Shown here piece by piece: positions 32,948-64,000 of a stretch of DNA of 64,000 nucleotides. Made by a program: the position numbers and the translations under genes. The stretch spans positions 3,040,001 through 3,104,000 of the forward strand of contig CBDBHB010000009.1 in the NCBI GenBank assembly GCA_965205505.1, in the 5' to 3' direction. Origin of the DNA: Acidobacteriota bacterium (GTDB lineage Bacteria; Acidobacteriota; UBA890; WLXD01). The notes under the pieces were generated by a model, which had not been told where the DNA came from, did not search any database, and was given only the letters and a program-made list of their open reading frames with translations. Position 1 is the first letter of the stretch, and every line of letters starts with the position of its first letter.

Positions 32948-34957
32948 ATGAAGAAGTCCGATCGTGAGCTCGGCATGGGCCGCGACATTACCCGCCGCGA
33001 CTTTCTCAACGGCGCCGGCGTGGCGATCGGTGGTGCCGGTGCGATTGGCGCAGCGATGGGGACGCGAGTGACACTCGCCAACGAGCCGCCAGTGAATCGC
33101 GCCCAGAGTCCTGGGCCCTTCGGCTCCGACGAGTACTACCCGCCCAAGCTCACCGGAATGCGCGGCAGCCATCCGGGCTCGTTCGAGGTGGCGCACGAGA
33201 TGCGCGACGGCAAGACCTGGGGCGAGGCCGCGGACACCGGCGAGAGCTACGACCTGATCGTCGTCGGCGGTGGGCTGAGCGGCTTGGCCGCCGCCTACTA
33301 CTTCCGCAAGGCGTTGCCCGAGGCGAAGGTGCTGGTGCTCGACAACCACGACGACTTCGGCGGCCATGCCAAGCGCAACGAGTTCATGCTCGGAGACCGG
33401 CAGATCATCGGCTACGGCGGCACGATGTTCATCACCGGGGCGTATACCCCCGAGGGCGTGACCCTATTCGACGACATCGGGCTCAACGCCGAGCGCTTCA
33501 ACGCCGCTACTGGGGGCGCCACGGACGACTCCGACCCGCTGGCCAGATACGACCTCCAGCCGGGCGTGTTCTTCGACCGCGAGACCTTCGACGAAGACCG
33601 ACTGGTCGTTGGCACCCCAGACAACGGCTGGGGTGGCGCTAACGCGGCATCGATAACGTGGTCGGAGTTCCTATCGAAGACGCCGCTGAACGAACAGGCG
33701 CGGCACGACATCGCCCGCCTCTACGACGATCAGAAGGATTATCTCGAGGGCCTCTCGGCGGACGAGAAGATCAGCCGGCTTCGCAAAATGAGTTACGAGG
33801 ACTACCTGCTGAACGTCGTCGAGGTAGATCCCCAGGTCATTGCCTACTTCCGGTACAGCATCGATCATAACGGCGCTGCCGGAATCGACAGCATCAGCGC
33901 ATACGGCGCCTTCCGCTCAGGCTGGGTGCCGGGGTTCGACGGCCTGGGGCTAGGACGGCCGTCGCGCAATTGGCTCGAGGAAGCTGGCATCGACAACCCG
34001 CTCGAAGGCATCCACTTCCCGGACGGTAACGCCGGCGTTGCCCGGCTGATGGTTCGTTGGCTGATCCCCGATGCCCTGCCCGGGTCGACGATGGAGGATT
34101 CTGTCGCCACACGGGTGCGCTACGACGCGTTGGACAGGGACAGCAACGATGTCCGCATCCGCGTCAACAGCACCGTCGTGAACGCCCGCCATAGCGGCGA
34201 GCCACGCTCCGCGGACGAGGTGGAGGTGACCTACGTCCGCGCTGGCAAGGCGTATCGGGCTCGCGCCGCAACCTGCGTGATGGCCTGTTACAACGCCGTC
34301 GTCCCCTACCTCTGCCCGGAGATCCCCGACGCGCAGCGGGCCGCGCTCAAGCTCGCGGTTCGCAAGCCCTACGTCTACACCAATGTCGTCGTGCGCAACT
34401 GGACGGCGTTCCACGAGCTCGGCGTCTCGAGCATCAGCAGTCCCGGCAGCTACCATCAATCCGTCATGCTCGACTGGGGCGTGAGCCTCGGGAACTACAC
34501 CTGCTCGCAGACTCCCGAGGATCCCATGGTGGTGCACATGCAGCGGGTTCCGATCATGCCGGGTTTGCCGGCGAGAGATCAGTTCCGCGCCGGGCGCGAG
34601 GATCTGCTGGCAACCTCGTTCGAGACCTTCGAGCGCAACGTGCGCGATCAGCTCGGGCGTGCCCTGGCCAACGGTGGATTCGATCCGGCGCGCGACATCG
34701 AGGCGATCACGGTCAATCGCTGGCCGCACGGCTATGCTGGTGCGCCCAATGACCTGTACGACCCGGAGTGGAGCTATGACGAGGCGCCCTTCGTGGTCGG
34801 CCGCAAACGCTTCGGACGCATCACGATAGCCAACTCTGACGCCGCCGCTGTGAGCCTGACGTCGGCAGCGTTCGACCAGGCGCATCGTGCCGTGCAGGAG
34901 CTGCTGACCGACGTGATCCGACCCGAGTTCCAGTATCCTTGGGCCGAACGCACCTAA
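32948..34957 (+). CDS. Tat-exported spermidine dehydrogenase (SpdH)-like FAD/heme oxidoreductase, copy 1
   Basis: AAGGAG RBS, ITRRDFLNG Tat motif, YYPP.LTGMRGSH, GGGLSG, LDNHDDFGGHAKRNE, HFPDGNA, NRWPHGY and IANSDA. Confidence 0.85.
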   Translation: MKKSDRELGMGRDITRRDFLNGAGVAIGGAGAIGAAMGTRVTLANEPPVNRAQSPGPFGSDEYYPPKLTGMRGSHPGSFEVAHEMRDGKTWGEAADTGESYDLIVVGGGLSGLAAAYYFRKALPEAKVLVLDNHDDFGGHAKRNEFMLGDRQIIGYGGTMFITGAYTPEGVTLFDDIGLNAERFNAATGGATDDSDPLARYDLQPGVFFDRETFDEDRLVVGTPDNGWGGANAASITWSEFLSKTPLNEQARHDIARLYDDQKDYLEGLSADEKISRLRKMSYEDYLLNVVEVDPQVIAYFRYSIDHNGAAGIDSISAYGAFRSGWVPGFDGLGLGRPSRNWLEEAGIDNPLEGIHFPDGNAGVARLMVRWLIPDALPGSTMEDSVATRVRYDALDRDSNDVRIRVNSTVVNARHSGEPRSADEVEVTYVRAGKAYRARAATCVMACYNAVVPYLCPEIPDAQRAALKLAVRKPYVYTNVVVRNWTAFHELGVSSISSPGSYHQSVMLDWGVSLGNYTCSQTPEDPMVVHMQRVPIMPGLPARDQFRAGREDLLATSFETFERNVRDQLGRALANGGFDPARDIEAITVNRWPHGYAGAPNDLYDPEWSYDEAPFVVGRKRFGRITIANSDAAAVSLTSAAFDQAHRAVQELLTDVIRPEFQYPWAERT

Positions 34958-35018
34958 GCCGTCGGCTCCAGCGTGGCGATCGGCCTACTCCAAAAAGGCG
35001 AGGTTGGGCAGCAATCTC

Positions 35019-35567
35019 ATGCGCAAGAAGCTCCGTATCCGTTACCCGTATCTGATAATGACCATTCTTACGGTGGGCACCCTGGCCTGCTCGTCGTCAC
35101 AGCCTCCCACAACGACCCCCATCCCGCCGTCCGCAACGCCGGTGGAACTGGAGCCGCGCGACGTTCGGGCCGAACCTGTCGAGCCGGCCATGCCGGAGCC
35201 CCCGGCCACAGCCGGGGCGGCCACTTCGGTCATGGACGGGGTGTATACCGTCGAGCAGAGCACCCGCGGCGAGGCCGCATATCGTCTCGCCTGCCAGAGT
35301 TGCCACAGGCCCACCTTGCGAGGCGGAATCGTCATCCCGACACTGGTGGGAGAGGATTTCATGTCCAAATGGGGTCGCATGTCGGCCGGCGACCTGTTCG
35401 AGAAACTACGCACCACCATGCCGCCTTCCGCGTCGCGCAGGCTCACCCGCGAGGAGTACGCCGACGTGGTGGCCTTCATCTTCAGCAAGAACGAATTTCC
35501 GCCCGGAGAGCAGGAGCTTGGCACCGACTTCGCCGAGCTCAAGGACATCCAGATCCAGCCGCAGTAG
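35019..35567 (+). CDS. Lipoprotein cytochrome c
   Basis: Lipobox-like TLAC, Pro-rich linker, SVMDGVYT..Q..RG, CQSCH and TMPP. Confidence 0.85.
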   Translation: MRKKLRIRYPYLIMTILTVGTLACSSSQPPTTTPIPPSATPVELEPRDVRAEPVEPAMPEPPATAGAATSVMDGVYTVEQSTRGEAAYRLACQSCHRPTLRGGIVIPTLVGEDFMSKWGRMSAGDLFEKLRTTMPPSASRRLTREEYADVVAFIFSKNEFPPGEQELGTDFAELKDIQIQPQ

Positions 35568-50945: not shown

Positions 50946-52496
50946 TTAGCCGTAGCTTCGACGTAGCCCCTCGGGGATGACCAGTCGATCGACCAGCTCG
51001 AAGCAAGCATGGATCACGAGCGCCATCACGGCAGCCGGCACGGCGCCGGCGAGGATTGTCGGGATATCGTTGAGGGCCAAACCCCGAACGATCAAGGTCC
51101 CGTAGCCTCCGCCGCCGATGAAGGCTGCCAGCGTCGCCGTCCCCACGGTGAGGACTGCTGAAGTCTTGATGCCCGCCATGATATTCAGCGACGCAAGCGG
51201 AAGCTCGATGCGAGTCAATCGCTGCCGCTGGCTGAGCCCGAGTACGCCGGCGATCTCCAGTAGCTGACGGTCGAGGCCGATGAGCCCGGTGTAGGTGCTC
51301 CTCACGATCGGCAGCAGCGCATACAGAAACAGCGCCACAAGCGACGGCAGCCGTCCGATGCCGAACAACGGGATCATGAAGCACAACAGCGCCAGCGAGG
51401 GAATCGTCTGCAGGATGCCAACTGATACCAACGTCGTCTGACCGAGACGGCGAAACCGCGCGGCCACGATGCCCAGCGGGATGCTAACCAGGGTTGCCAG
51501 GCCGAGCGCGACGACCACGAGGAGGGCGTGGTCGAGTGTCAGCCTGAGGATCTCGTCTCGGATCGAGACGCCGCCCTGGGTACCGGGTTGCCCGTTCGAC
51601 AGGAACGCTGAGGCGACCTCACGCGGTGTCTGGCCGTCCAGATCTGCGAGAGCGTTCAGGGTCGACATCTCGCCGTCGTCCAATCGACGTACGAGGAGCT
51701 CGTTGAGCCGTTCCCAGATACGCGGGTAACGGTCGATGAAGTCCTGCCGCACCAGCATCACAGCTTCGTACTTGGCGAAGAACTCCAGATCATCGACCAG
51801 AACGCGGAGATCGAATCGATCGATCTTGCCGTCGGTCGAGTAGATGTCGATAACATCGACCTCGCCACGCGACACCGCCTCGTAGCTCAGGGAGTGCTCG
51901 ATCACTCGAACTTCCGAAAAGCTAAGGTCATAGCGTTGCTGCAGTCCCGGCCATCCGTCGGCGCGGTCGATGTACCCAGCACTGAACGCCGCTTCCATCT
52001 CCGGGTGGCGTTGCAGGTCGGTGATCGTCCGCAATCCGAGACGCTCTCCCACATCCTCGCGCACAGCCAAGGCGTAGGTATTTTCGAATCCCAACGGATC
52101 GCTCACCGTCAAACCCAAGCCGCGCAGCCGCCGGCGAAGCTCTGCCACGCCGATCGCCGACGAATCCTTCAGCAGCGCGTAGCTCAGCGTGCCGGTGTAC
52201 TCAGGGTAGATGTCGATCTCGCCGGTCGAGATGGCTCGGAATGCGATTGCCGCAGCACCGAGACCCATCTTGCGCTCGACCACTGCTTCGCCGGCACCCT
52301 CCACGATTGCCGCGATCAGCTCCCCGAGAATGAAGCTCTCGGTGAACGACTTGGACCCGACACGGACGACGCCTGCATCACGCGGTGACGCGGGGGCACA
52401 TGCAGCGCCCGACAACAGCAATACGGCCACCGCGCCAACGCACACATAGACCTCACGGGTCACCCTCAACGCACGCCTGGAAGTGTCGCCGCACAT
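50946..52496 (-). CDS. Osmoprotectant (glycine betaine/choline-type) ABC transporter, fused substrate-binding and permease
   Basis: VGSKSFTES, DIYPEYTGT, GFENTYAL, YSTDG, QTIPSLALL and AAFIGGGGYG. Confidence 0.9.
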   Translation of the reverse strand: MCGDTSRRALRVTREVYVCVGAVAVLLLSGAACAPASPRDAGVVRVGSKSFTESFILGELIAAIVEGAGEAVVERKMGLGAAAIAFRAISTGEIDIYPEYTGTLSYALLKDSSAIGVAELRRRLRGLGLTVSDPLGFENTYALAVREDVGERLGLRTITDLQRHPEMEAAFSAGYIDRADGWPGLQQRYDLSFSEVRVIEHSLSYEAVSRGEVDVIDIYSTDGKIDRFDLRVLVDDLEFFAKYEAVMLVRQDFIDRYPRIWERLNELLVRRLDDGEMSTLNALADLDGQTPREVASAFLSNGQPGTQGGVSIRDEILRLTLDHALLVVVALGLATLVSIPLGIVAARFRRLGQTTLVSVGILQTIPSLALLCFMIPLFGIGRLPSLVALFLYALLPIVRSTYTGLIGLDRQLLEIAGVLGLSQRQRLTRIELPLASLNIMAGIKTSAVLTVGTATLAAFIGGGGYGTLIVRGLALNDIPTILAGAVPAAVMALVIHACFELVDRLVIPEGLRRSYG

Positions 52497-52499
52497 GGC

Positions 52500-53245
52500 T
52501 CAGAAGTGGCCCTTCATATCAGGGGGCGGCTTCTGGGCCTGAAAGAACGCGGTCACGAAGTCACTTGCAGGCTGCGTCACGAGGTCGAGAAATGTCCCCT
52601 GTTGGACCAATCGGCCTTCGGTCATCAGGCTGACGGTCTGCCCGAGCATCGCGGCCTCTCGAATGTCATGGGTAACGAGGATCACCGTCTTGCCCAGGGC
52701 GCGAAAGATCTCCGGCAGCTGCACCTGTAGTCCGTGGCGCACCAGTGGGTCCAGAGAACCCAGAGGCTCATCCAGAAGCAGGATCGGTGGATCCAGCAAA
52801 AGCGCCCGCATCAGGCCGACTCGTTGTCGCTGCCCGCCGCTGAGCTCGTGTGGATACTTCTGCATGATCGGCGCATCAAACCCGACGAGCGCCATCAGCT
52901 CGTCAATACGCTGGGCCGTGCGATCGACCAACCACCCCCGCGCCTCGGCGGCGAGCGACACATTGCTTCGCGCGCTGAGGTGCGGGTACAGCCCCCCTCC
53001 TGCACGACATAACCCATTGTCGCGAGCAGTTCCTTTCTGCTGTCCGTATCCATGGCCCTGCCATCGACGCGAACGGAGCCACTGTCGGGAGCTATCGATC
53101 CGAGGATGAGCCGGAGAATGGTCGATTTTCCACAACCGCTCGAGCCCAGAAGGACGTGCGTCTGTCCGCGGCTGAACTCGCACGAGAGGTTCTCGATCGC
53201 GACCACCGAGTCGAAGAGCTTGGTCACGCGGTCGAGAACGATCAT
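52500..53245 (-). pseudogene. Osmoprotectant ABC ATP-binding protein, frameshifted (real lesion or sequencing error)
   Basis: Walker A GSSGCGKST and GYVVQEGG are in one frame; LYPHL, LSGGQRQR and DEP are in another. One extra G in the G6 run (52992-52997) restores the frame. Confidence 0.8.
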
Positions 53246-53249
53246 TCGA

Positions 53250-54261
53250 TCAACAGGCCGGGGCGGCTCGTCGATCGAATACGACACCCGAGCGTCCTGC
53301 TCGCACCGCGTCCCAGATCGCCTGATAGAGCCTCATGGTCTCGACTGCATCTGCAATGCTCCCCACCGGCTCGCGGCCCTCGCGGATGGCTCTGACCCAC
53401 TCGACCAGACATGGACCATCCCCGGTGAGCTCACCACTGCGCTCATCGCTCCAGTTCTCGGTGAAGGTGTTCTGCTCCTGGGCGTAGTGCTTGATCGACC
53501 AGAGGTCGTCGAGAACGAGGTACTCGTTCTTTCCGGTGATCTCGATGCGATCGTAGTTCCGCCACCAGAGTCGCTGGCTGTTCAGCTGCAGAGTTCCCAC
53601 GGCACCGCTGACGAACTCCAAGCCGACCGCCAGCGCCACACCGCTTCCGTCCTGTCGGTGAAACAACGACAACTGCCGGATCTCGCCGCCGAGGAATCGG
53701 GCGATATCTAGATAGTGCGGCGCGAAATCGAGGATGTAAGCATGAACCGGATCGTCGTAGTCACGACCACGGACCTCATCGAAGATCCCGCTGCAGAACG
53801 AGCCGAAGAACTGGGTCATCGTTCCAAACGACTCCGCCGCCATGATCTCGCGGGCCTTGGTCACGCCGAAGCAGAAGCGGCGCTGGAAGTTCACCATCAA
53901 GATCCTTCCGGCGCGACTTGCCGCCTCTGCCAGCTCTTGCGTGGCGTTCAGCGAGGCCGCTGGCGGCTTGGGGATGAAGACGTGATAGCCGGCCTCTAGC
54001 GCCTCCAGTACGATGCGCTGCCGCGGCCGCGGATGCATCTGCACGATCACCGCCTCGAGGTCTTCCGTCTCCCACATCTCCCGGTAGTCGGTGTACCAGC
54101 GCCCGGGCCCGAACTTCCCGGCGGTATCGCGGGCCAGGGCTTCGTCACGATCGCAGAACTGCCTGCAGATGGATCGGTGCGAAGTGCAACGACGGATACA
54201 CCTGCCACGTCGCCATGGCGCCGGCGCCGACGAAGCCGACCCGCAGAGGCTCCAGCCGCAA
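53250..54261 (-). pseudogene. Gfo/Idh/MocA oxidoreductase, frameshifted near the 5' end
   Basis: LRVGFVGAGAMA Rossmann start (TTG 54261) is out of frame with AVCDRD..YTDYREM..PKPPA. Removing one base at about 54157-54158 restores a single ORF. Confidence 0.75.
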
Positions 54262-54263
54262 TG

Positions 54264-56219
54264 CTACTCGGCCGACTCGCGCAGCGAGAACGCGATCCAC
54301 TCGGCCGGATCGTCGTTGCCGCCGACGGCGACGACGATGTACTGACGTCCCTGGTGCATATAGGTGATCGGCGCTCCGGTAACGCCTGCTGACAGCTCGG
54401 TCTCCCAGAGCTCGGTGCCGTCGGCTTTGTCATAGGCGCGGAACTTGTTGCCGTTGACTTGGATGCCGAGTATCGCGTCGCTGCTCTCGCCGAGAAACAG
54501 CAGGGTCTTGGTGAGCATCGGTGCCGGACGACCAAGCATTCCCAGCGGCGGAAGGTCGAGACCCTCGAGCAGCGGATGGTCGAGCGGGCCGTCACCGTTG
54601 GCCGCCATCCAGACTTTCTCGCCGCGGTTCATATCGTAGGCGGTGATGCGTCCGTACGGTGGCTTGAAGATCGGTAGCCCGTCGAGGGTCGGAACTCCCG
54701 GACCCTCGCCCCACTCGTAGGCGAGCGTCGCCTCCGGATCGGACGGCTCGGAGAGCGGATAGACGTTCGGCATCGTGTGCGAGACGGCGTAGTAGAACCC
54801 GGTCTCCGGGTCGAACGCACCGGTGTTCCAGTTGCCCGACCCCCAGCCGCCGGGGAAGATCAGCGTGCCCTGTTTACTTCCAGGGTCACTGCCAACGACC
54901 GACGGCGGCGTGAACATGGGCCCCAGCAAGAGGGGCTCGATGAGCTCCAGAGCTCGTGCCCGCAGCTCCGGGGTGAAGTCGATCAGGTCGTCTTCGCTGA
55001 AACCCTGCATATCGAACGGCGGTGGCTTGGTGGGGAAGGGCTGCGTCGGCGACAGCTGCTCGCCGGGCACCTCCGACTGCGGCACCGGGCGCTCCTCGAT
55101 CGGCCACACCGGCTCACCTGTCTCGCGATCGAATACATAGAGAAACCCTGTCTTGCTGGGCTGCATCACCGCCTTGATTCGCTTGCCCTCCACGGTGATC
55201 TCGCCAAGCGTCGCCGGGCCTACGGTGTCGTACTCCCAGACGTCGTGATGCACCATCTGGAAGTGCCAGACGCGTTTACCGGTTTTGGCATCGAGCGCCA
55301 CGAGGCTGTTGGAGAACAGGTTGTCGCCCGGTCGATGTCCCCCGTAGTAGGCCGCCGTCGGCGCCGTCAGAGGTACGTAGACGTAGCCGAGCTCCTCATC
55401 CGCCGTGGCGCAGCACCAGGACCCCAAGTCGCCCGAGTACTTCCAGGAATCGTCTCCCCAGGTGTCGTTGCCGAATTGCCCGGGCTTCGGAACCACGTTG
55501 AAGGTCCACAGCAACTCGCCGGTGCGCACCGAGTAGCCGCGCACATCCTCGGGAACGGCTTCCTTGCGATTGCCGCCGTCGCCGGCGCCGCCCGTGATCC
55601 CGGCTATGACGATCACGTCGCCAACGACGATCGGGCCCGCCGACCAGCGGTAATTACCGGCCCGCTGGTGGGCGATGTTGAGGTTGAGCCGGCCCCGATC
55701 GCCGAAATCGGCATACGGTTCCCCGGTCCGTGCGCTGAGTGCGTAGAGGTAGTCGTTGCGCACCAGGAGCAGCCGTCGATCCGACCCCTCGCCCCAGGTA
55801 TCGATACCGCGCGGGCTCCTGCCCCTGGCCTCGCTCAAGGTCGGCGCAAATGGCTGCTGTTCCCAAATCGTCTCCCCGGTTCCGGGGTCCAGGGCACGCA
55901 GCAGCCCGACGCCGTTCGGCGCCAGCAACATGCCGTCGAGCATGATCGGCGTCGACCTGAAATAGCCGGGAATCCGCACCTCGGGGTAGGCGTCCTCGAA
56001 CGCCGGGTCTACGGCCGGGCGACGCCAGGCAACCCGCAGGTCGGTAATGTTGTCGCGATTGATCTGCGCCAGCGGAGAGTAGCGTGTAAACGCCTTGTCG
56101 CCGCCGAAGTAGGGCCACTCGCCGGGCGCCCGTTCACCCTGGGCGTGCGAGGCGATCGGCCCGCCCCCGACCATCATCAGGAGCACGCCACCGCCTATCA
56201 GCCGTTGCAAACTGGACAC
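54264..56219 (-). CDS. Periplasmic PQQ-dependent dehydrogenase (quinoprotein glucose dehydrogenase-like)
   Basis: Signal peptide, RYSPL.QIN, GGHRPGDNLF, WHFQMVHHDVWEYD, PTQPFP, KPPYG and GRQYIVV. Confidence 0.9.
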   Translation of the reverse strand: MSSLQRLIGGGVLLMMVGGGPIASHAQGERAPGEWPYFGGDKAFTRYSPLAQINRDNITDLRVAWRRPAVDPAFEDAYPEVRIPGYFRSTPIMLDGMLLAPNGVGLLRALDPGTGETIWEQQPFAPTLSEARGRSPRGIDTWGEGSDRRLLLVRNDYLYALSARTGEPYADFGDRGRLNLNIAHQRAGNYRWSAGPIVVGDVIVIAGITGGAGDGGNRKEAVPEDVRGYSVRTGELLWTFNVVPKPGQFGNDTWGDDSWKYSGDLGSWCCATADEELGYVYVPLTAPTAAYYGGHRPGDNLFSNSLVALDAKTGKRVWHFQMVHHDVWEYDTVGPATLGEITVEGKRIKAVMQPSKTGFLYVFDRETGEPVWPIEERPVPQSEVPGEQLSPTQPFPTKPPPFDMQGFSEDDLIDFTPELRARALELIEPLLLGPMFTPPSVVGSDPGSKQGTLIFPGGWGSGNWNTGAFDPETGFYYAVSHTMPNVYPLSEPSDPEATLAYEWGEGPGVPTLDGLPIFKPPYGRITAYDMNRGEKVWMAANGDGPLDHPLLEGLDLPPLGMLGRPAPMLTKTLLFLGESSDAILGIQVNGNKFRAYDKADGTELWETELSAGVTGAPITYMHQGRQYIVVAVGGNDDPAEWIAFSLRESAE

Positions 56220-56268: not shown

Positions 56269-56757
56269 CTATTCCTGCGGCTCGGGCATCACCTGGAAAT
56301 GAAGGTGGACGATCGTCCAGCTGCCATTGCGCTTCACCAACGTCGGCGACATCTGGTAGATCACCGTCGGGGCTGCCTCGCCAGGATTGGCCCGGCTGAC
56401 CGTCAAAATATACGACGCGACTGCCAGATCACCGCTCGGAGCCACGGCAATCTGTAGGTCAGAGTTCTCGGCCGACGCCAGGCCACCGGTGGAATCGATG
56501 TACTCCGTCCAGTACGTCCTATACGAGGCCTTGTCCCAGCGACCCGACGGGCCCCACCAGGTCAACTCGGGCGCGTAGAGCCCGAAGTAGCCCTCGATGT
56601 CGTTGACCGCATACGTCGCGGTCAGTTGCGCCACAGCATCGGCCACCTCCTGTTCGAGCGCGGCGGCGTCCTGTGCGGTCGCTCCCGGGGCACCGATCGT
56701 GGCCACTGCGACAACCGCCAAAGCCAAAGCAAAAGCAAAACTCACGATATTTCGCAT
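56269..56757 (-). CDS. Secreted NTF2-like (SnoaL/DUF4440) protein
   Basis: GAGGAGG RBS, signal peptide, AVASY.L and KRNGSWTIVHLHF. Confidence 0.8.
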   Translation of the reverse strand: MRNIVSFAFALALAVVAVATIGAPGATAQDAAALEQEVADAVAQLTATYAVNDIEGYFGLYAPELTWWGPSGRWDKASYRTYWTEYIDSTGGLASAENSDLQIAVAPSGDLAVASYILTVSRANPGEAAPTVIYQMSPTLVKRNGSWTIVHLHFQVMPEPQE

Positions 56758-56780
56758 CTCGTCGACCTCCTCGCTGACCG

Positions 56781-57287
56781 TTAATCGGCGGCGGTGACGG
56801 GGTTCCAGTGGAAATGCGCGATGCTCCACTCCCCGTCGCGCTTGAACCAAGTCGCCGACATCTGGTAAGTGGCGTTTACTCCTTCGGGATCGTCCGTGAT
56901 GCGCTTGACGTTGAGCAGATAGGACGCCACCGCACCGTCACCGGCGGGCGATGTGTGGATCTGCAGATCGCTGATGTTGGCCTCTGTGAGACCGCCACCG
57001 CCGCCGACAACGCCGCTCCACAGCTCGTGGTACTCGTCGCGCGTTACCCGTCGGCCAGGCCACCACTGCGTCCCATCCGCCGCGAAGGAGCCGATATAAC
57101 CCTCCACGTCGTTGGAGCCATACGCGGCCACGAACTCCATCATCCGCTCACGCACCTCGTCTTCTGCTGTCGCCACGGGATCTTCGGCTACCGGTTCCGG
57201 CGCCGGCTCTCCACCTCCGCAGGCTGCGGCGAGTACTGCCAGGACGATCAGCCAAACGAAGTTCCTTCCTCCCAGAACATTGCGCAT
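56781..57287 (-). CDS. NTF2-like (SnoaL/DUF4440) lipoprotein
   Basis: GGAGGAGG RBS, LAAAC lipobox, paralogous to 56269-56757 (Y..ND.EGY, WW, SDLQI, AVASY, YQMS). Confidence 0.8.
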   Translation of the reverse strand: MRNVLGGRNFVWLIVLAVLAAACGGGEPAPEPVAEDPVATAEDEVRERMMEFVAAYGSNDVEGYIGSFAADGTQWWPGRRVTRDEYHELWSGVVGGGGGLTEANISDLQIHTSPAGDGAVASYLLNVKRITDDPEGVNATYQMSATWFKRDGEWSIAHFHWNPVTAAD

Positions 57288-57462
57288 GTTGCACCTCCTC
57301 CACTGCTGTGCTGTGCTGCAGACCTCTTGAGCGTTGTACAGGGTTTCCAATCCGGCGCCAGAAGTCCAGTCGCGCAGCGAGTCCCTTCCTCAACCGCGCT
57401 GTTTTCTGCGACACGGGGAGCGACCTGCAACGCCAATGGAATCCGCTCCGAAGACCGTTGAT

Positions 57463-57566: not shown

Positions 57567-59524
57567 GTGAAGAAGGGCGACAAGCATCTCGGTATGGATC
57601 GCCAGATCACTCGGCGTGACCTCCTCAATGGCGTCAGCGTGGCCATCGGGGCCTCAACCACCGGCGGGCGCCTGACTGCCGAGTCGCCCGAGGTTCGGCG
57701 CTACGCCACCCAGGAGACCCCTGAGGACTACTCTACCCGCCACGGCTGACCGGAATGCGAGGCAGCCACGAGGGCTCCTTCGAGGTGGCGCACGAGATGC
57801 GCTTTGGGAAGACCTGGGACGGCGCCGACGAATCCGGCGAGCACTACGACCTGATCGTCGTCGGCGCTGGGTTGAGTGGCCTCGCGGCGGCCTACTACTT
57901 CCGTAAGGCACTCCCCGAAGCCAAGGTCTTGATCCTCGACAACCACGATGACTTCGGCGGCCACGCCAAGCGTGTCGAGTTCACCGTCGGCGACCGGCAG
58001 CTCATCGGCTATGGCGGCACGCAGTTCATCACCGGTTACTACCCAGCCGAGGCCAAGCAGCTGCTGGACGACATCGGAGTGAGCGCCGAGCGCTTCCCGA
58101 GCGGGACCGCAACCGATCTTTATCGCGAGCTGGGGCTTGAAGGAGGGGTGTTCTTCGATCGGGAGACCTTTGGTGTCGACCGCCTTGTGGTCGGCGAGCC
58201 ACGCCGGGCGCGTGGACCGCAAGCAGAGCGCCGATGGACGGCGTTCCTCGACAAGACACCCCTGTCCGATGCAGCCAAGGCGGGCATCCTCCGGCTCTGC
58301 ACCGAGGATCGCGACTACCTGCCAGGGCTGACCGACGACGAGAAAATCGCCCGCCTGCGGAGGATGAGCTACCAGAGTTACATTCTCGACGTTGTAGGCG
58401 TCCACCCGGATGTGATCCCGTACCTGCTGCGGCGCGGCGATCCGAACGGCGCCGCCGGTATCGACTCGTACAGCGCCTGGGGTGCCCTACGAAGCGGCTC
58501 GTTCCCTGGTTTGGGCGGGCTCGGGCTCGATCGTCCAGCTCGCAATGCGGCGCCTGGCGACAACCCCTTCCAGGGCATCCATTTCCCGGATGGCAACGCC
58601 GGCATCGCCCGTTTGATCGTCCGCTGGCTCCTCCCGCGAGCGCTGCCGGGAGACACGATGGAGGACTCGGTTACTACGCCGATCCGCTATTCCGAGCTCG
58701 ACAAGGCGGGCGCCCCGGTGCGAATCCGGCTCAACAGCACGGTGGTTGGAGCGCGTCACGCCGGCGAGCGGCGCACCTCCAGCGAGGTCGTCGTGACCTA
58801 CGTCCAGGACGGACGGGCGGTTCGCGTGCGCGGCGACAACTGCGTCATGGCTTGCTACAACGCCATGATTCCCTACCTGTGCCCAGAGGTCCCTGAGGTC
58901 CAGAAGGAAGCGCTGAAGATGGCGGTGCGCAAGCCCTACGTCTACACGCAGGTGGCGATCCGCAACTGGACCTCGTTCGTTAATCTCGGTGTCGGTGCTA
59001 TCCACAGTCCCGGAGGTTTCCACGAGTTCATCGACCTCGATTGGGGCGTCAACGTCGGCGACTACCAGCACTCGGCGTCGCCGGACGAGCCGATCCTGCT
59101 GTGGTTGCAGCGCCTACCCATTCGACCAGGCCTATCGGCGCGTGACCAGTTTCGTGCCGGCCGCGAGGAGCTGCTGGCAACGTCGTTCGAGACCTACGAG
59201 CGCAACATCCGCGATCAGCTGGGCCGCGCCCTCGGCGAAGGAGGCTTCGATCCGGCTCGCGACATCGCCGGAATCACCGTGAATCGCTGGCCGCACGGCT
59301 ACGCAAGCGGTGGCAACGATCTCTACGACCCCGACTGGAGTTACGACGAGGCGCCCTGGGTGGTCGGCCGACAACGCTTCGGGCGGATCACCATCGCTAA
59401 CTCGGACGCGGCAGCGATCTCGTTGACGCAGGCGGCATTCGAGCAGGCGCACCGCGCCGTTCAGGAGCTACTGACCGACGTGATTCGCCCCGAGTTCCAG
59501 TATCCGTGGGCAGAGCGCACCTGA
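57567..59524 (+). pseudogene. SpdH-like Tat oxidoreductase copy 2, frameshifted near the 5' end (real or error)
   Basis: GTG 57567 with GAGGAG RBS gives VKKGDKHLGMDRQITRRDLLNG. GACTACTCTACCCG at about 57726-57739 breaks the DYYPP frame. The remainder (57755-59524) is intact and closely parallels copy 1. Confidence 0.8.
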
Positions 59525-59578
59525 GGCGAGGTGGTGCGCCGATCGCCGAGGGCAAAAGAGGGAGGGAGAGCTCGTCCA

Positions 59579-59607
59579 TTGCTGGTGCCTCCCTGCAAGC
59601 CTACAAT
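59579..59607 (+). promoter_or_regulatory. Putative sigma70 promoter of Rieske oxygenase 1
   Basis: TTGCTG-17 nt-TACAAT about 130 bp upstream of ATG 59736. Confidence 0.55.
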
Positions 59608-59735
59608 TCGATGGGAAATTGTAGTTTCTTGAGCACGAAGCGCGCATACGACGCGGGGCGGGGCGCAAGCGCTGGCGAGTACGTAGATTTCCGAGGTCAG
59701 ATCGACCGCGTTCCGATCGGTGAAGGAGTAGTGAG

Positions 59736-61259
59736 ATGAGCAAGAAAGACGATCACGACGAGAACGGCGGCCCGCGCGTAAGCCGCCGAGCCTTCGCAAA
59801 GGGCTCGGTCGCCGCAGGCACCGCGGCGGTGGCCCTTCCCAAGTCGCTGTTCGGCGCCACTCCGGCGACGACAGCCGCGACGACTAAGACCAATGGCCGT
59901 GCAGCGCGCGTGGAGATGCGCACTGAAACCGCCGCCTACGGTGGCAGCGGTGCGACTCCGCTGACGGCGCCGGTTGCCAAGAAGCCTGGCGTCAGTGGCT
60001 GGACAGAAGGCCTGACCATTCCCCACGAGTACTACACGGAGCCGCAGCACTTCGACGCCGACGAGGCGTTCGTGGCGGAGAATTTCTGGCAGTACACCGA
60101 TCAGGCGAGCCGTATTCCGGATCCGGGCGATTTCTACGTGTTCGAGTTCGGTCGCTCCGAGTCCATCCTCATCGTGCGCGGTCAGGACAACGAGATAAGA
60201 GGCTTCTACAACGTCTGCCGCCACCGCGGCTCGCGACTCTGCCGTCACGACGCCGATGCCAAGCCGAGCGACCCACGCCTGTCGGTCAAGCAACTCGGAC
60301 AGTCCGGTAGCTCACCGGTGTTCCGGTGCCCATATCACGCATGGACGTACGACACCGAGGGCAGCCTGATCTACGCCTACGGCATGCAGGACGACTTCGA
60401 CCCGGCCGACAACGGCCTGCTCCCGTGCCACACGCGGGTCGCCGAGGGTCAGGTCTTCGTCAATCTGTCGAAGTCAGAGACCCCACCGGACTTCGAGTCG
60501 GTGGTAGCTCGCATGCGCGCCCTCGCTCCGAAGTACAGCTTCAAGGACCTGAAGGTTGTGGCCCGTGAGTACTACCCAATCAACGCCAACTGGAAGCTTG
60601 CCCTTGAGAACTTCAAGGAGTGCTACCACTGCGGGCCGTCGCATCGGCCGCTGGTGACCACCCACAACTGGGATCACGACATCAGCGCCGAACAGAAGGC
60701 TGAAAAGGCCGCCGCGGTCGCCGATTGGGTGCCAGAGGAACACCGGCGGCGGCGACGCGGTAACCAGCAGCAGGGCGGCCAGGGCATGAGAGGCGGTATG
60801 AGCGGCGCCGGCGCCGAGTCGCTCCAGTTGACGGGACAGCTCAATCCCGGCTTCGTTACGGGCACCATAGACGGTAAAGCCGCGTCGATTCTGCTGCCCA
60901 ACATCGACGACTGGCACCACGAGACCAACGTCGCCACAACAGCCGAGTCAACCGGCTACTGGCAGTGCTACGACGATCACGTCGCGGTGGCTCGTTTCAC
61001 GCCGCGGGCGGAGAACTTCACCGATTGCGAGATCGTCTGGTTGGTGCACCCCGACGCCGTCGAGGGTCGCGACTACGACCCCGACAACGTCAAGGCGCTC
61101 TGGCACGTCACCATCCAGGAGGACATCTGGGTCACCGACAACAACCACGCCGGTATCGAGTCGAGTGCGTACACCGCCGGTCGATACTCGATCATCGAGG
61201 GCAGCCCGGCCCGCTTCGTGGGCTGGTACATGAAGGAGGTCGTCAAGGCGGGCAACTGA
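59736..61259 (+). CDS. Rieske non-heme iron oxygenase alpha subunit (GbcA/Stc2-like) with Tat signal, copy 1
   Basis: AAGGAG RBS, SRRAFAK plus h-region, NVCRHRG..CPYHAW Rieske ligands, NWKLALENFKECYHC...H and QED. Confidence 0.9.
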   Translation: MSKKDDHDENGGPRVSRRAFAKGSVAAGTAAVALPKSLFGATPATTAATTKTNGRAARVEMRTETAAYGGSGATPLTAPVAKKPGVSGWTEGLTIPHEYYTEPQHFDADEAFVAENFWQYTDQASRIPDPGDFYVFEFGRSESILIVRGQDNEIRGFYNVCRHRGSRLCRHDADAKPSDPRLSVKQLGQSGSSPVFRCPYHAWTYDTEGSLIYAYGMQDDFDPADNGLLPCHTRVAEGQVFVNLSKSETPPDFESVVARMRALAPKYSFKDLKVVAREYYPINANWKLALENFKECYHCGPSHRPLVTTHNWDHDISAEQKAEKAAAVADWVPEEHRRRRRGNQQQGGQGMRGGMSGAGAESLQLTGQLNPGFVTGTIDGKAASILLPNIDDWHHETNVATTAESTGYWQCYDDHVAVARFTPRAENFTDCEIVWLVHPDAVEGRDYDPDNVKALWHVTIQEDIWVTDNNHAGIESSAYTAGRYSIIEGSPARFVGWYMKEVVKAGN

Positions 61260-61377
61260 TCCCTAGCAGGAGTCGATCTACGGGTCGGCTCCCGTGTTGT
61301 TCATTGGATGCCGCGCGGCGCGCCTGAGCCCGTACCCGCCGACCACAGGGCCGAAGTGAAGGAACCCGGCGCGCCTA

Positions 61378-61407
61378 TTGTCGTACCGCCTGCCAACGTG
61401 ATACTCA
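61378..61407 (+). promoter_or_regulatory. Putative promoter of Rieske oxygenase 2
   Basis: TTGTCG-16 nt-GATACT. CGTGATACTCA is shared with the region upstream of SpdH-like copy 2. Confidence 0.4.
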
Positions 61408-61540
61408 TGCAGTCGGGTGACTTCGCTGGGGTGTGCGTTGAGATTGTCGCGCGATGTCCGAGCGCGACTGACCCGAACGATTACCGACGAATTTGTAGCG
61501 GCTTGAGATCGATCAGATCCAACTGGCGAGGCAAGTACAG

Positions 61541-63052
61541 ATGAGCAAGAAAGACGACCACGACGAGAACGGTGGCCCGCGCGTAAGCCGCCGAACCTTC
61601 GCCAAGGGCTCGGTTGCGGCGGGCACCGCTGCTGTCGCCCTCCCCAAATCGCTCTTTGGCGCCACCCCGGCGACGGCCGCCGCAACGACGGCTACCTACG
61701 GTCGCGCGTCGCGCGTCGAGGCGCGCAACGAGAACATCGGGTACGGCGGGCGCGGTGCGGCTCCGCTCACCGCGCCCGTCGCCAAGAGGGCCAGTGTCAA
61801 CGGCTGGAAAGAGGGCCTCACTATTCCCGCCGAGTACTACATCGAGCCGAAGCATTTCGAGGCCGACGAGGCGTTCGTCGGCGAGAACTTCTGGCAGTAC
61901 ACCGATCAGGAGAGTCGTATTTCGAACCCAGGCGACTTCTATGTCTTCGAGTTCGGGCGTTCCGAGAGCATTCTCATCGTGCGCGGGAAGGACACCGAGG
62001 TGAGAGGCTTCTACAACGTCTGCCGCCACCGCGGCTCGCGACTCTGCCGTCACGACGCCGATGCCAAGCCGAGCGACCCACGCCTGTCGGTCAAGCAACT
62101 CGGACAATCCGGTAGCTCACCGGTGTTCCGGTGCCCGTACCACGCTTGGACGTACGACACCGAGGGCAGCCTGATCTACGCCTACGGCATGCAGGAGGAT
62201 TTCGACCCGGCCGACAACGGCCTGCTCCCGTGCCACACGCGGGTCGCCGAGGGTCAGATCTTCGTCAACCTGTCGAAGTCCGACACGCCGCCGGATTTCG
62301 ATTCGGCAGTCAGCTCGCTCACGGCTCTGGCTCCCGAATACCACTTGAAAGACCTAAAGGTCGCGGCCCGCGAGTACTACCCGATCAACGCTAACTGGAA
62401 GCTGGCGTTGGAGAACTTCAAGGAGTGCTACCACTGCGGCCCGGCTCACCGGCCGCTGGTCACGACGCACAACTGGGATCACGACCTCAGCGATCAGCAG
62501 AAGACTGAGAAGGCCGCGGCGGTTGCCGCGTGGGTCCCGGAGGAGAGCCGCCGGCGACGTGAAAACGAAGATGCAGGCATGGCCGGCGAGGGCATGGACG
62601 GCACGCCCGGCTACGACCGCTTGACCGGGCTGCTCAACCCGGGCTTTGTCACCGGGACGATCGACGGCACCCAGGCGGCACCGTGGCTGCCTGGGAGGAA
62701 GGGAGACGACCACCGGACGGTGATCGCCACCACCGCAGAGTCGACCGGGTACTGGCAGTTCTACGACGATCACGTCATGGTGGTGCGGTTCACCCCGCGC
62801 ACGGAAAAGTTCACCGATGCCGAGATCGTCTGGCTGGTGCACCCCGACGCAGTCGAGGGTCGCGACTACGATCCCGAAAAGGTCAAGGGCCTTTGGCACG
62901 TCACGATCCAGGAGGACATCTGGATCACCGACAACAACCACGCTGGGGTCGAGTCGAGCGCGTACAGTGGCGGTCGCTACGGCACCCTCGAAGGCGGCCC
63001 GTCGAGCTTCGTCAACTGGTATATGAAGGAGATCGTCCAGGCCGGCGATTGA
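61541..63052 (+). CDS. Rieske oxygenase alpha subunit with Tat signal, copy 2
   Basis: SRRTFAK, the same Rieske and mononuclear Fe ligands, tandem paralog of copy 1. Confidence 0.9.
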   Translation: MSKKDDHDENGGPRVSRRTFAKGSVAAGTAAVALPKSLFGATPATAAATTATYGRASRVEARNENIGYGGRGAAPLTAPVAKRASVNGWKEGLTIPAEYYIEPKHFEADEAFVGENFWQYTDQESRISNPGDFYVFEFGRSESILIVRGKDTEVRGFYNVCRHRGSRLCRHDADAKPSDPRLSVKQLGQSGSSPVFRCPYHAWTYDTEGSLIYAYGMQEDFDPADNGLLPCHTRVAEGQIFVNLSKSDTPPDFDSAVSSLTALAPEYHLKDLKVAAREYYPINANWKLALENFKECYHCGPAHRPLVTTHNWDHDLSDQQKTEKAAAVAAWVPEESRRRRENEDAGMAGEGMDGTPGYDRLTGLLNPGFVTGTIDGTQAAPWLPGRKGDDHRTVIATTAESTGYWQFYDDHVMVVRFTPRTEKFTDAEIVWLVHPDAVEGRDYDPEKVKGLWHVTIQEDIWITDNNHAGVESSAYSGGRYGTLEGGPSSFVNWYMKEIVQAGD

Positions 63053-63076
63053 TCTTCCGACAAGCCGCTATGAACG

Positions 63077-63112
63077 CGCGGGAACCGATCTGCCGGTCGG
63101 TTCCCGCGTTTT
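63077..63112 (+). terminator. Rho-independent terminator
   Basis: 12-bp perfect stem CGCGGGAACCGA/TCGGTTCCCGCG with an 8-nt loop, followed by TTTT. Confidence 0.75.
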
Positions 63113-63183
63113 GCTAATAGCTACGTGAAGGCGTCATGCAGCGCGCGGCGACCTAGTCGCACCTCGGACGGCGGAGCGAGCTG

Positions 63184-63672
63184 ATGTCGAAGAAAACTCC
63201 GGACGGGATCAACGGACCGAAAGTAAGCCGGCGGACGTTCGCCAAGTCGTCCGTCGCTGTCGTCACGGCAGCCGTGACTCTGCCCGATTCCCTGTTTGGT
63301 GCGCCGCCTCGTGCACCCGCAGCGACAACGCCGACACACCGGACAGTTCCGCGGGCGGAGTTGCCCGGGGAAGCGCCGGGCTACGGCGGCAGGGGTGCGC
63401 CGCGCGTGCCCATTACGGTCTCCGAGAGCAGCGGCGCCAACGGCTGGAAAGAGGGCGTCCATCCGGATGCCGTCGACGGTCGCGACTACGATCCCGACAA
63501 CGTCAAGGCGCTCTGGCACGTCACGACGACGGAAGATATCTGGCTTACCGATAACCACCACCTCGGCATCCAGTCAGGCGGCTATAGCTCCGGTCGCTAC
63601 GCCACCCACGAGGGCAGCCCGGCCCGATTCGTCAAGTGGTACATGGAACAGTTCGTCGACGCCGGCGATTGA
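63184..63672 (+). pseudogene. Rieske oxygenase copy 3 with in-frame internal deletion (Tat leader plus C-terminal ~70 aa only)
   Basis: SRRTFAK leader to NGWKEG is fused directly to VHPDAVDGRDYDP. About 340 codons present in copy 2 are missing. Confidence 0.8.
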
Positions 63673-63777
63673 ACTTCGAGCTCCGTTGTGGGCTCGCGAA
63701 CGCCACCATCTGGAACCGTCCGGAGATCTCTGGCACCCTTGTCGGCGATCTCGCACCGACCGGACCCGAGGGACACG

Positions 63778-64000
63778 ATGACGAAGAACGATCGACAGCT
63801 CGGAATGGACCGCGACATCACGCGGCGTGACTTCCTGGGTGGCACCAGCGTTGCCATCGGTGGCTCGCTGCTCGCCGCCGGAACCGTTAGCGCATCACCG
63901 GCCGTGCCTGGAACGTCAATAGAGCAGACAGCGGTGTCCTACCCGGCGACCTGGAAGGTCGGCGACTACTACCCACCCAGGCTCACGGGCATGCGCGGCA
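63778..64000 (+). CDS. SpdH-like Tat oxidoreductase copy 3, partial (runs off the window)
   Basis: Manual translation: MTKNDRQLGMDRDITRRDFLGG...DYYPPRLTGMRG. Confidence 0.85.
   Translation, partial: MTKNDRQLGMDRDITRRDFLGGTSVAIGGSLLAAGTVSASPAVPGTSIEQTAVSYPATWKVGDYYPPRLTGMRG

Follow-up and report, generated by a model that had tools for sequence, protein, structure and literature searches.

The 64,000-nucleotide stretch of DNA analysed here (the window; G000:C9:3040001-3104000, i.e. positions 3,040,001 to 3,104,000 of its contig) belongs to a genome of 5.98 Mb in 9 contigs with 64% GC, whose proteins have their closest relatives in metagenome-assembled genomes (MAGs) of Acidobacteriota. Towards the end of the window lies an array of Rieske oxygenase genes between genes for SpdH-like FAD/heme b amine dehydrogenases, and the array points to an undescribed way of running Rieske oxygenases outside the cytoplasm. 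Throughout the text, RO stands for a Rieske oxygenase gene, SP for an SpdH-like gene and CYT for a homolog of the cytochrome c encoded at 35004..35567 of the window. ROs with a twin-arginine (RR) leader, the mark of the Tat (twin-arginine translocation) route, are referred to as the Tat clade, and leaderless ROs served as control. Coordinates refer to the window unless a contig (C6 to C9) is given.

Layout and strain variation of the array

The array consists of the following elements, in order:

57567..59524, + strand: SpdH-like 1, SpdH-like FAD/heme b amine dehydrogenase; start GTG at 57567, leader VKKGDKHLGMDRQITRRDLL including ITRRDLL, 589-aa body at 57755..59524
59736..61259, + strand: RO1, alpha subunit of a Rieske monooxygenase with Tat leader, 507 aa; leader at residues 1-45, linker at 46-87 and core at 88-507
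61269..61292, + strand: GC-rich hairpin 3' of RO1, of the type GGAGTCGATCT...GGCTCC; a similar hairpin follows RO2 near 63070-63100
61541..63052, + strand: RO2, tandem paralog of RO1 with 80% identity, 503 aa; domains PF00355 and PF00848
63184..63672, + strand: RO3 remnant, 162 aa; aligns to RO1 residues 1-93 and 437-506 only
from about 63778 past the window end to C9:3105769, + strand: SpdH-like 2; its Tat leader passes the TIGR01409 model

Five co-oriented genes, each opening with a twin-arginine motif, had been proposed in the original prediction. All five indeed lie on the + strand and carry RR motifs, but SpdH-like 1 is frameshifted between leader and body: its leader frame stops at 57749, the body continues in another frame, and an insertion of 2 bp (57731-57732) accounts for the break. 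For strain variation of the array, the window was compared with contigs from four public runs. Because the 2 bp were present in the contig of run X1 and missing from one contig each of runs X4 and X7, the frameshift is specific to the strain, and close relatives have an intact gene. RO3, previously described as truncated, is incomplete but not simply truncated. Its leader and approximately 93 N-terminal residues are joined in frame to the last 70 residues, without the Rieske and iron sites, i.e. the gene has undergone an in-frame internal deletion; its sequence was identical in contigs of runs X1, X4 and X7. In a contig of run X7, position 59566 is joined straight to 61345, so that SpdH-like 1 is followed by RO2. 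Thus, RO1 is absent from that X7 strain and the copy number within the array varies. Altogether, the array is a birth-and-death product in which one gene was duplicated in tandem, another was reduced to a remnant by deletion and a flanking gene was frameshifted. Two more SpdH-like genes come after SpdH-like 2, outside the window.

The start codon of RO1 (ATG) is preceded at a distance of 8-9 nt by the Shine-Dalgarno sequence AAGGAG. A scan for sigma-70-like promoters returned 0 sites against 0.7 expected and is uninformative. The hairpins behind RO1 and RO2 were duplicated together with the gene; they may be terminators or repeat elements.

A clade of Rieske oxygenases with twin-arginine leaders

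RO1 and RO2 were found to possess the complete Rieske and mononuclear iron sites that had been read from their sequences. The Rieske domain PF00355 scored 45.0 and 42.3 bits in RO1 and RO2, respectively (cut-off 20.3), and the catalytic domain PF00848 (Ring_hydroxyl_A) 89 and 99 bits. The cluster site reads C161-R-H163 ... C198-P-Y-H201, the iron site E291-N-F-K-E295-C-Y-H298 ... H303, plus D463. In the alignment of 34 clade members on which all statements about residue invariance in the oxygenases are based, the four ligand positions of the cluster were invariant, and so were the bridging Glu295, H298, H303 and D463. The latter three residues of RO1 align with H204, H209 and D360 of the stachydrine demethylase Stc2, which we take to be ligands in that enzyme.

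The best NCBIfam model for both proteins was that of GbcA (NF058607, an equivalog model), with 218.7 bits for RO1 and 233 bits for RO2, below the cut-off of 670 bits. By sequence as well as by fold, the nearest solved structures were 3n0q, Stc2 and the carnitine monooxygenase CntA, and all of these matches begin at residue 90-93 of RO1. The Rieske domain has an insertion of 14-17 aa between its two boxes for cluster binding, which is absent from 3n0q, Stc2 and CntA; it is strongly conserved inside the clade (34 aligned members) and of low confidence in an AlphaFold2 (AF2) model of RO1. This model reached a mean pLDDT of 72, with 84-97 in the core; residues 1-85 were disordered except for a helix at 17-30 that coincides with the hydrophobic (h-) region of the leader. 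Within the otherwise variable linker between leader and core, a P-x3-GYGG motif is common to many members.

Database searches delimited the group further. Among 1.84 billion cluster representatives, a few clusters match from residue 13-14 onwards (44-74% identity); next come leaderless proteins some 400-420 aa long, whose match starts only at residue 84-97 and whose identity falls to 34-39%. The family is abundant in public data: of 7999 candidates that were scored, 2556 proteins matched at E<=0.001, and nearly all of the best 120 bear the leader. When 301 genomes of the phylum were sampled, 7 had a match at E<=1e-80, namely all 5 of the own genus (G000, the genome of the window, included) and 2 from other families. 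The genome itself contains 17 full-length leader-bearing RO copies, and 19 RO genes were counted. Judged by sequence, both RO1 and RO2 are members of a separate clade of predicted alpha-only Rieske monooxygenases related to Stc2, GbcA and CntA; the marks of this clade are the twin-arginine leader with a flexible linker, the conserved Rieske insertion and putative periplasmic heme proteins as genomic partners. A leaderless Rieske oxygenase of a different build is encoded elsewhere in the genome (L188; G000:C6:336220-338997). The fusion protein of 925 aa includes a complete aldehyde dehydrogenase domain and resembles choline monooxygenase plus betaine-aldehyde dehydrogenase in a single chain.

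The leaders of RO1 and RO2 contain the sequences SRRAFAK and SRRTFAK, followed by the hydrophobic GSVAAGTAAVALP, which corresponds to an S/T-R-R-x-F-L-K-like Tat motif and a moderately hydrophobic h-region. R17 and R18 were invariant (34/34 aligned members), F20 and A21 nearly so, and the RR motif was present in 17/17 full-length Tat-clade paralogs of the genome. Within the best 120 homologs (48-95% identity), 111 have the pattern RR.[FL] in their first 70 aa. From the nine others, six begin inside the h-region or the linker, which suggests that their starts were mis-called, and three at the core. The uncharged stretch behind the motif had a median length of 16 aa and a mean Kyte-Doolittle value of 1.4 in these 120 proteins.

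Codon comparison of six paralogs gave 180 synonymous and 186 nonsynonymous differences for the leader (142, 81 and 276 by codon position), 1382 and 1355 for the core (958, 761 and 2017 by codon position), and 135 and 252 for the linker, which is more relaxed. Like those of the core, the leader codon differences are mainly at third positions. The leader, from which export had originally been predicted, is thus a conserved, translated and family-defining part of these proteins, as follows from the RR pair, the RR.[FL] pattern and the codon pattern. For tatC, two full-length matches (221 and 167 bits) and one fragment were found in the genome. The fragment, an open reading frame (ORF) of 131 aa covering profile positions 2-97 of 208, adjoins an SP-RO-x-SP-RO cluster at G000:C9:2059125-2068061.

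Taken together, the features of the leader argue strongly for Tat export of the ROs, although their leaders stay below the cut-offs of curated Tat models (see below). In the literature, with subscription journals largely uncovered, we found no exported or periplasmic Rieske oxygenase described. To our knowledge, every characterised Rieske oxygenase is cytoplasmic (or plastid) and dependent on NAD(P)H-derived electrons.

Genomic partners and the lack of a linked reductase

Rieske non-heme iron oxygenases rely on an NAD(P)H reductase, in some cases together with a ferredoxin, and this partner is usually encoded nearby. No match to PF00175, PF00111, PF07992 or small Rieske proteins was obtained within the window, in agreement with the original statement that it contains no ferredoxin or NAD(P)H reductase gene. 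A dedicated reductase was not linked beyond the window either: it was found neither beside the RO copies of the genome nor, as the reductase type that accompanies the controls, in any of the 22 Tat-clade loci from elsewhere (see below). At the level of the genome, PF00175 (FNR-type) had 2 matches, C9:1764725 and C8:95332, neither of them near an RO; Fer2 had 13, none adjacent to an RO; Pyr_redox_2 had 7 strong matches, each separated from the nearest RO by about 50 kb or more. Weak partial matches to Pyr_redox_2 occurred within a few kb of ROs, one of which is an exported amine-oxidase-like flavoprotein. Small Rieske proteins were encoded twice in the genome, in neither case adjacent to an RO. 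By the domains searched, the RO clade appears to depart from the class trait of a nearby reductase; a reductase may act in trans.

In contrast to a reductase, SpdH-like genes are direct neighbours of many ROs. Nine of the 19 RO genes of the genome belong to arrays that SpdH-like genes border directly, the shortest gaps measuring 7-10 bp. The flanking genes were confirmed as true SpdH homologs: the paralog L022 matched SpdH of Pseudomonas aeruginosa (PaSpdH; PDB 7d9i) with an E value of 4.7e-126 (1e-126 for 7d9f), residues 61-654 being aligned with chain residues 31-619, and the FAD-binding motif PF13450 was found in SpdH-like proteins. Both heme b ligands of PaSpdH, His54 and His562, are conserved; they align with H13 and H514 of the SpdH-like 1 body and were invariant in 28 aligned sequences. 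According to the accessible sections of PMC12564564, electrons in PaSpdH pass from FAD to a surface heme b (His54/His562) and from there directly to cytochrome c, ferricyanide or an electrode. That SpdH is an exported enzyme, as the original prediction assumed, is in line with PMC6085387, which, in the part available, lists the PA3713 leader with ISRRDFLNG among the validated Tat substrates of P. aeruginosa; the leaders here are similar, reading ITRRDFLNG. Approximately 26 SpdH-like genes, with a mutual identity of 45-82%, are present in the genome, and this divergence suggests many substrates, including amines other than spermidine or spermine.

A second type of partner was found farther upstream in the window, next to another SpdH-like gene:

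32948..34957 (start approximate), + strand: further SpdH-like gene
35004..35567, + strand: lipoprotein mono-heme cytochrome c (CYT family), 47 bp behind the SpdH-like gene

The 47-bp pairing suggests cytochrome c as the natural acceptor for at least this SpdH-like paralog. In CYT proteins a lipobox-like Cys is found together with a linker, and both CxxCH and a Met are invariant. A CxxCH scan (ORFs of at least 80 aa with GC3 >=0.70, so that smaller genes may be missed) was used for the genome; of its 5 CYT paralogs none is located less than 16 kb from any RO, and one is the copy 47 bp from SP. Other recurrent neighbours of ROs in the genome encode exported hydrolases, PQQ dehydrogenases and TonB-type receptors.

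The neighbourhoods of 22 Tat-clade loci from other genomes and metagenomes, defined by an RO at least 40% identical to RO1, were compared with those of 139 leaderless control loci. The RR motif was visible in 16 of the 22; for the locus with 70% GC (L106), neighbours were determined by tblastn. CYT homologs were found within 500 bp of the RO in 9/22 loci and anywhere in 11/22, these 11 being separate records. SpdH-like genes were found in 4/22 and 10/22, respectively, and either of the two in 12/22 and 19/22. Among the control loci there was one SP and no CYT. The co-occurrence with SpdH-like genes that had been predicted therefore holds in a wider form, with SP or CYT in 19/22 loci versus 1/139 controls, but within 500 bp CYT is commoner than SP. 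Seven CYT genes come immediately downstream of the RO in the same direction; two others are convergent. An SP-RO-RO-CYT operon occurs in a genome of a different family. The most frequent neighbours in the control loci were DAO-GCV_T dehydrogenases (50 loci), Pyr_redox_2/Reductase_C reductases (16 loci), aminotransferases and IclR regulators, i.e. these loci carry cytoplasmic betaine-catabolism genes and ferredoxin reductases. None of these clusters was detected in the 22 Tat-clade loci.

Some further genes surround the array or related clusters. Upstream of the array and on the opposite strand, two adjacent genes (56269-57350, - strand) encode small SnoaL/SgcJ-like proteins that have signal-peptide-like N-termini; a PQQ dehydrogenase gene (54264..56219) adjoins them. 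The ATPase gene of a glycine-betaine-type ABC importer (52500-53287, - strand) is frameshifted over the overlapping frames 52895..53287 and 52500..53183, and the fused binding-protein/permease gene of the same importer (50946..52496) looks intact. Three rve-integrase transposase copies are located a few genes from RO/SP clusters (G000:C7:593143-594171, C8:1162561-1163589 and C9:1664030-1664884); these transposases may be linked to the spread of such clusters.

Electron supply of the oxygenases and comparison with known systems

On balance we think it probable, with considerable room for doubt, that the ROs are exported by Tat and reduced by periplasmic heme carriers instead of an NAD(P)H reductase/ferredoxin chain. 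The RO would fold and receive its [2Fe-2S] cluster and its iron in the cytoplasm, would then be moved across the inner membrane by Tat, and would oxygenate or N-dealkylate small nitrogen compounds in the periplasm. There, one-electron heme carriers would take over its reduction from the usual reductase and ferredoxin. The His/Met cytochrome c lipoprotein, the heme b at the surface of SpdH-type flavocytochromes, or both are candidates for this role, and these carriers would themselves be reduced by periplasmic dehydrogenases (SpdH-like proteins, PQQ quinohemoproteins). We infer amines or quaternary amines as likely substrates from family resemblance.

The original prediction had named the SpdH-like partner, a cytochrome c or the quinol pool as the donor. 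Here the cytochrome c is at least as well supported as SpdH, because CYT was adjacent in 9/22 external loci and SP in only 4/22, and because 10/19 ROs of the genome have no adjacent SP. Either the lipoprotein cytochrome c or the heme b of the SpdH-like protein may be the donor, or the two may act in series; the external loci favour the cytochrome and the window array favours SpdH. A complex prediction for RO1 (residues 97-507) and the SpdH-like 1 body, both supplied as alignments, gave scores of 0.02 and 0.00 against a mark of 0.32; run without controls, it weighs neither way.

Several observations weigh against periplasmic oxygenases fed by heme proteins. Using the Tat models TIGR01409 and PF10518, which are short and of low sensitivity, the RO2 leader scored 8.1 bits (cut-off 16.7) and 14.9 bits (cut-off 22.7), respectively, the RO3 leader 14.4 against 22.7, and the RO1 leader gave no match; in comparison, TIGR01409 was passed by SpdH-like 2 (24.1 versus 16.7) and narrowly missed by SpdH-like 1 (16.1). 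A clear AxA cleavage site was not found in the RO leaders, L-x-A or F-G-A being merely permissive. Of the 22 external loci, 6 are cut at the RO N-terminus so that the leader is not visible, and several come from one same-genus MAG and are thus not independent. In the genome itself, 10/19 RO genes stand alone, with neither SP nor CYT adjacent, and for these a trans-acting donor has to be assumed; two genes on each side of nine of the ten (the broken copy C7:446252-447445 was excluded) revealed no recurrent partner. Finally, the invariant CxxCH and Met make CYT a cytochrome of the His/Met type. His/Met cytochromes c usually have a positive potential and oxygenase Rieske centres are usually found near -150 mV. 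Since the potentials differ, transfer from CYT to the Rieske centre would be uphill unless the centre of this clade is tuned. We regard the insertion beside the cluster as the obvious candidate for potential tuning or docking.

The low scores on the Tat hidden Markov models are also what would be expected if the leader were not functional and the ROs worked in the cytoplasm or at its membrane face, served by a generic ferredoxin and reductase in trans, with linkage reflecting a shared substrate pathway only. All characterised relatives are, as far as we know, cytoplasmic, and the 2 FNR-type genes, 13 Fer2 matches and 2 small Rieske proteins of the genome could serve as such a source. Nevertheless, the RR pair is invariant, the n- and h-regions are conserved among members that are 40-80% identical, and purifying selection acts on the leader as it does on the core. 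Moreover, a disordered linker of 40-120 aa is typical of tethered or exported domains, and the clade consistently lacks the cytoplasmic reductase context kept by leaderless relatives, which makes a non-functional leader rather improbable. Dispensing with a donor altogether appears still much less credible, to the point of being very improbable. Exported ROs would then use a peroxide shunt or have a non-oxygenase redox role. Turnover of Rieske oxygenases by the peroxide shunt is known in vitro, but the Rieske centre is fully conserved, as are the bridging Glu and the 2-His-1-Asp site, which implies that electrons are delivered between subunits in the normal way, and the consistent heme-protein neighbours argue for a donor. 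In addition, SpdH is described in the accessible sections of PMC12564564 as a dehydrogenase and not as an H2O2-forming oxidase.

If the ROs are exported, they may not be released. An uncleaved leader, with or without the linker, could tether the RO to the outer face of the inner membrane, where it would meet a lipid-anchored cytochrome c. The missing AxA site, a basic residue in the c-region and the long flexible linker are compatible with this; the CYT partners would be membrane-tethered as well because of their lipobox Cys, and the Rieske protein of bc1 provides a precedent for an uncleaved Tat signal anchor, as far as the available part of PMC6085387 goes. For a stable transmembrane helix, however, the uncharged stretch of about 13-16 residues, rich in Ala, Gly and Thr, is short and weakly hydrophobic, and we consider tethering unlikely. 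A similarly low likelihood is assigned to a direct, dedicated pairing in which the adjacent SpdH-like enzyme oxidises an amine and its surface heme b passes two electrons to the Rieske centre of the RO, just as cellobiose dehydrogenase (CDH) feeds lytic polysaccharide monooxygenase (LPMO). RO-SP gaps of 7-18 bp in three loci of the genome and in L114 and of about 100 bp in L029 and L030, as well as operons with both RO and SP in the distant lineages L107 and L109, fit such a pairing, and the SpdH heme b is surface-exposed and transfers electrons directly to external acceptors (PMC12564564, accessible sections). On the other hand, SP was found within 500 bp in 4/22 external loci only, compared with 9 for CYT. 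Ten of the 19 ROs here have no adjacent SP, most of the approximately 26 SP genes have no adjacent RO, and one SP gene of the window has CYT as its partner. RO-SP pairs could also arise, without protein contact, when whole units are duplicated in tandem.

Beyond the reduction of ROs by periplasmic heme carriers, which remains our preferred reading, a broader picture is put forward as a tentative possibility only. Tat-exported ROs, lipid-anchored cytochromes c and SpdH-type flavocytochromes b might form a self-contained, NAD(P)H-independent oxygenase system of the periplasm, in which electrons taken from one amine by a dehydrogenase would be spent on activating O2 on a second substrate or on that amine itself, a bacterial counterpart of CDH-LPMO, with the Rieske insertion serving heme-protein docking or potential tuning. 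At least 17 oxygenases and about 26 dehydrogenases in one genus might then be an adaptation by which various dissolved organic amines are stripped of nitrogen and carbon ahead of uptake. If the clade is indeed exported and coupled to cytochromes, a textbook enzyme class would gain a new compartment and a new electron-supply route, the redox question would arise of how the Rieske centre of an oxygenase is reduced by a His/Met cytochrome c or a heme b, and 'orphan' oxygenase genes without reductase in metagenomes would be read differently. It could also provide reductase-free oxygenases for biocatalysis and electrode-driven catalysis. The latter is plausible because SpdH shows direct electron transfer to electrodes (PMC12564564, accessible sections).

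Compared with known enzymes, the ROs share the alpha-only Rieske plus catalytic fold with Stc2 (PDB 3vca, 4qup), GbcA, CntA and the uncharacterised 3n0q, including CxH...CxxH, E-x-x-H...H with the bridging Glu, and the Asp aligned with D360 of Stc2. They differ from this group in a core identity of 28-37% only, in about 88 additional N-terminal residues with the RR leader, in the 14-17 aa Rieske insertion, and in having heme-protein neighbours and no linked reductase. The SpdH-like proteins share full-length homology, the FAD motif, the heme b histidines and the ISRRDFLNG-type leader with SpdH of Pseudomonas aeruginosa (PA3713; PDB 7d9f-j), whereas their leader is approximately 30-40 residues longer, with a linker, and about 26 paralogs occur in one genome. 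As a working analogy, the CDH-LPMO system likewise has an extracytoplasmic flavocytochrome b that could feed an O2-activating metalloenzyme from FAD via a surface heme b without NAD(P)H. The folds are unrelated, the metal centre is different, and the pairing here is one of neighbouring genes; the comparison of SpdH with CDH is drawn by PMC12564564 itself, in the sections accessible. For the ROs, the respiratory Rieske proteins offer a parallel in terms of compartment. As described in the available part of PMC6085387, the Rieske subunit of bc1 is likewise a Tat-carried [2Fe-2S] Rieske domain that exchanges electrons with cytochromes on the periplasmic side. Respiratory Rieske proteins are small subunits that serve electron transfer and have no mononuclear-iron oxygenase domain. 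The small subunit of arsenite oxidase is another Tat-exported protein of this kind, whereas in the array described here the whole oxygenase bears the leader.

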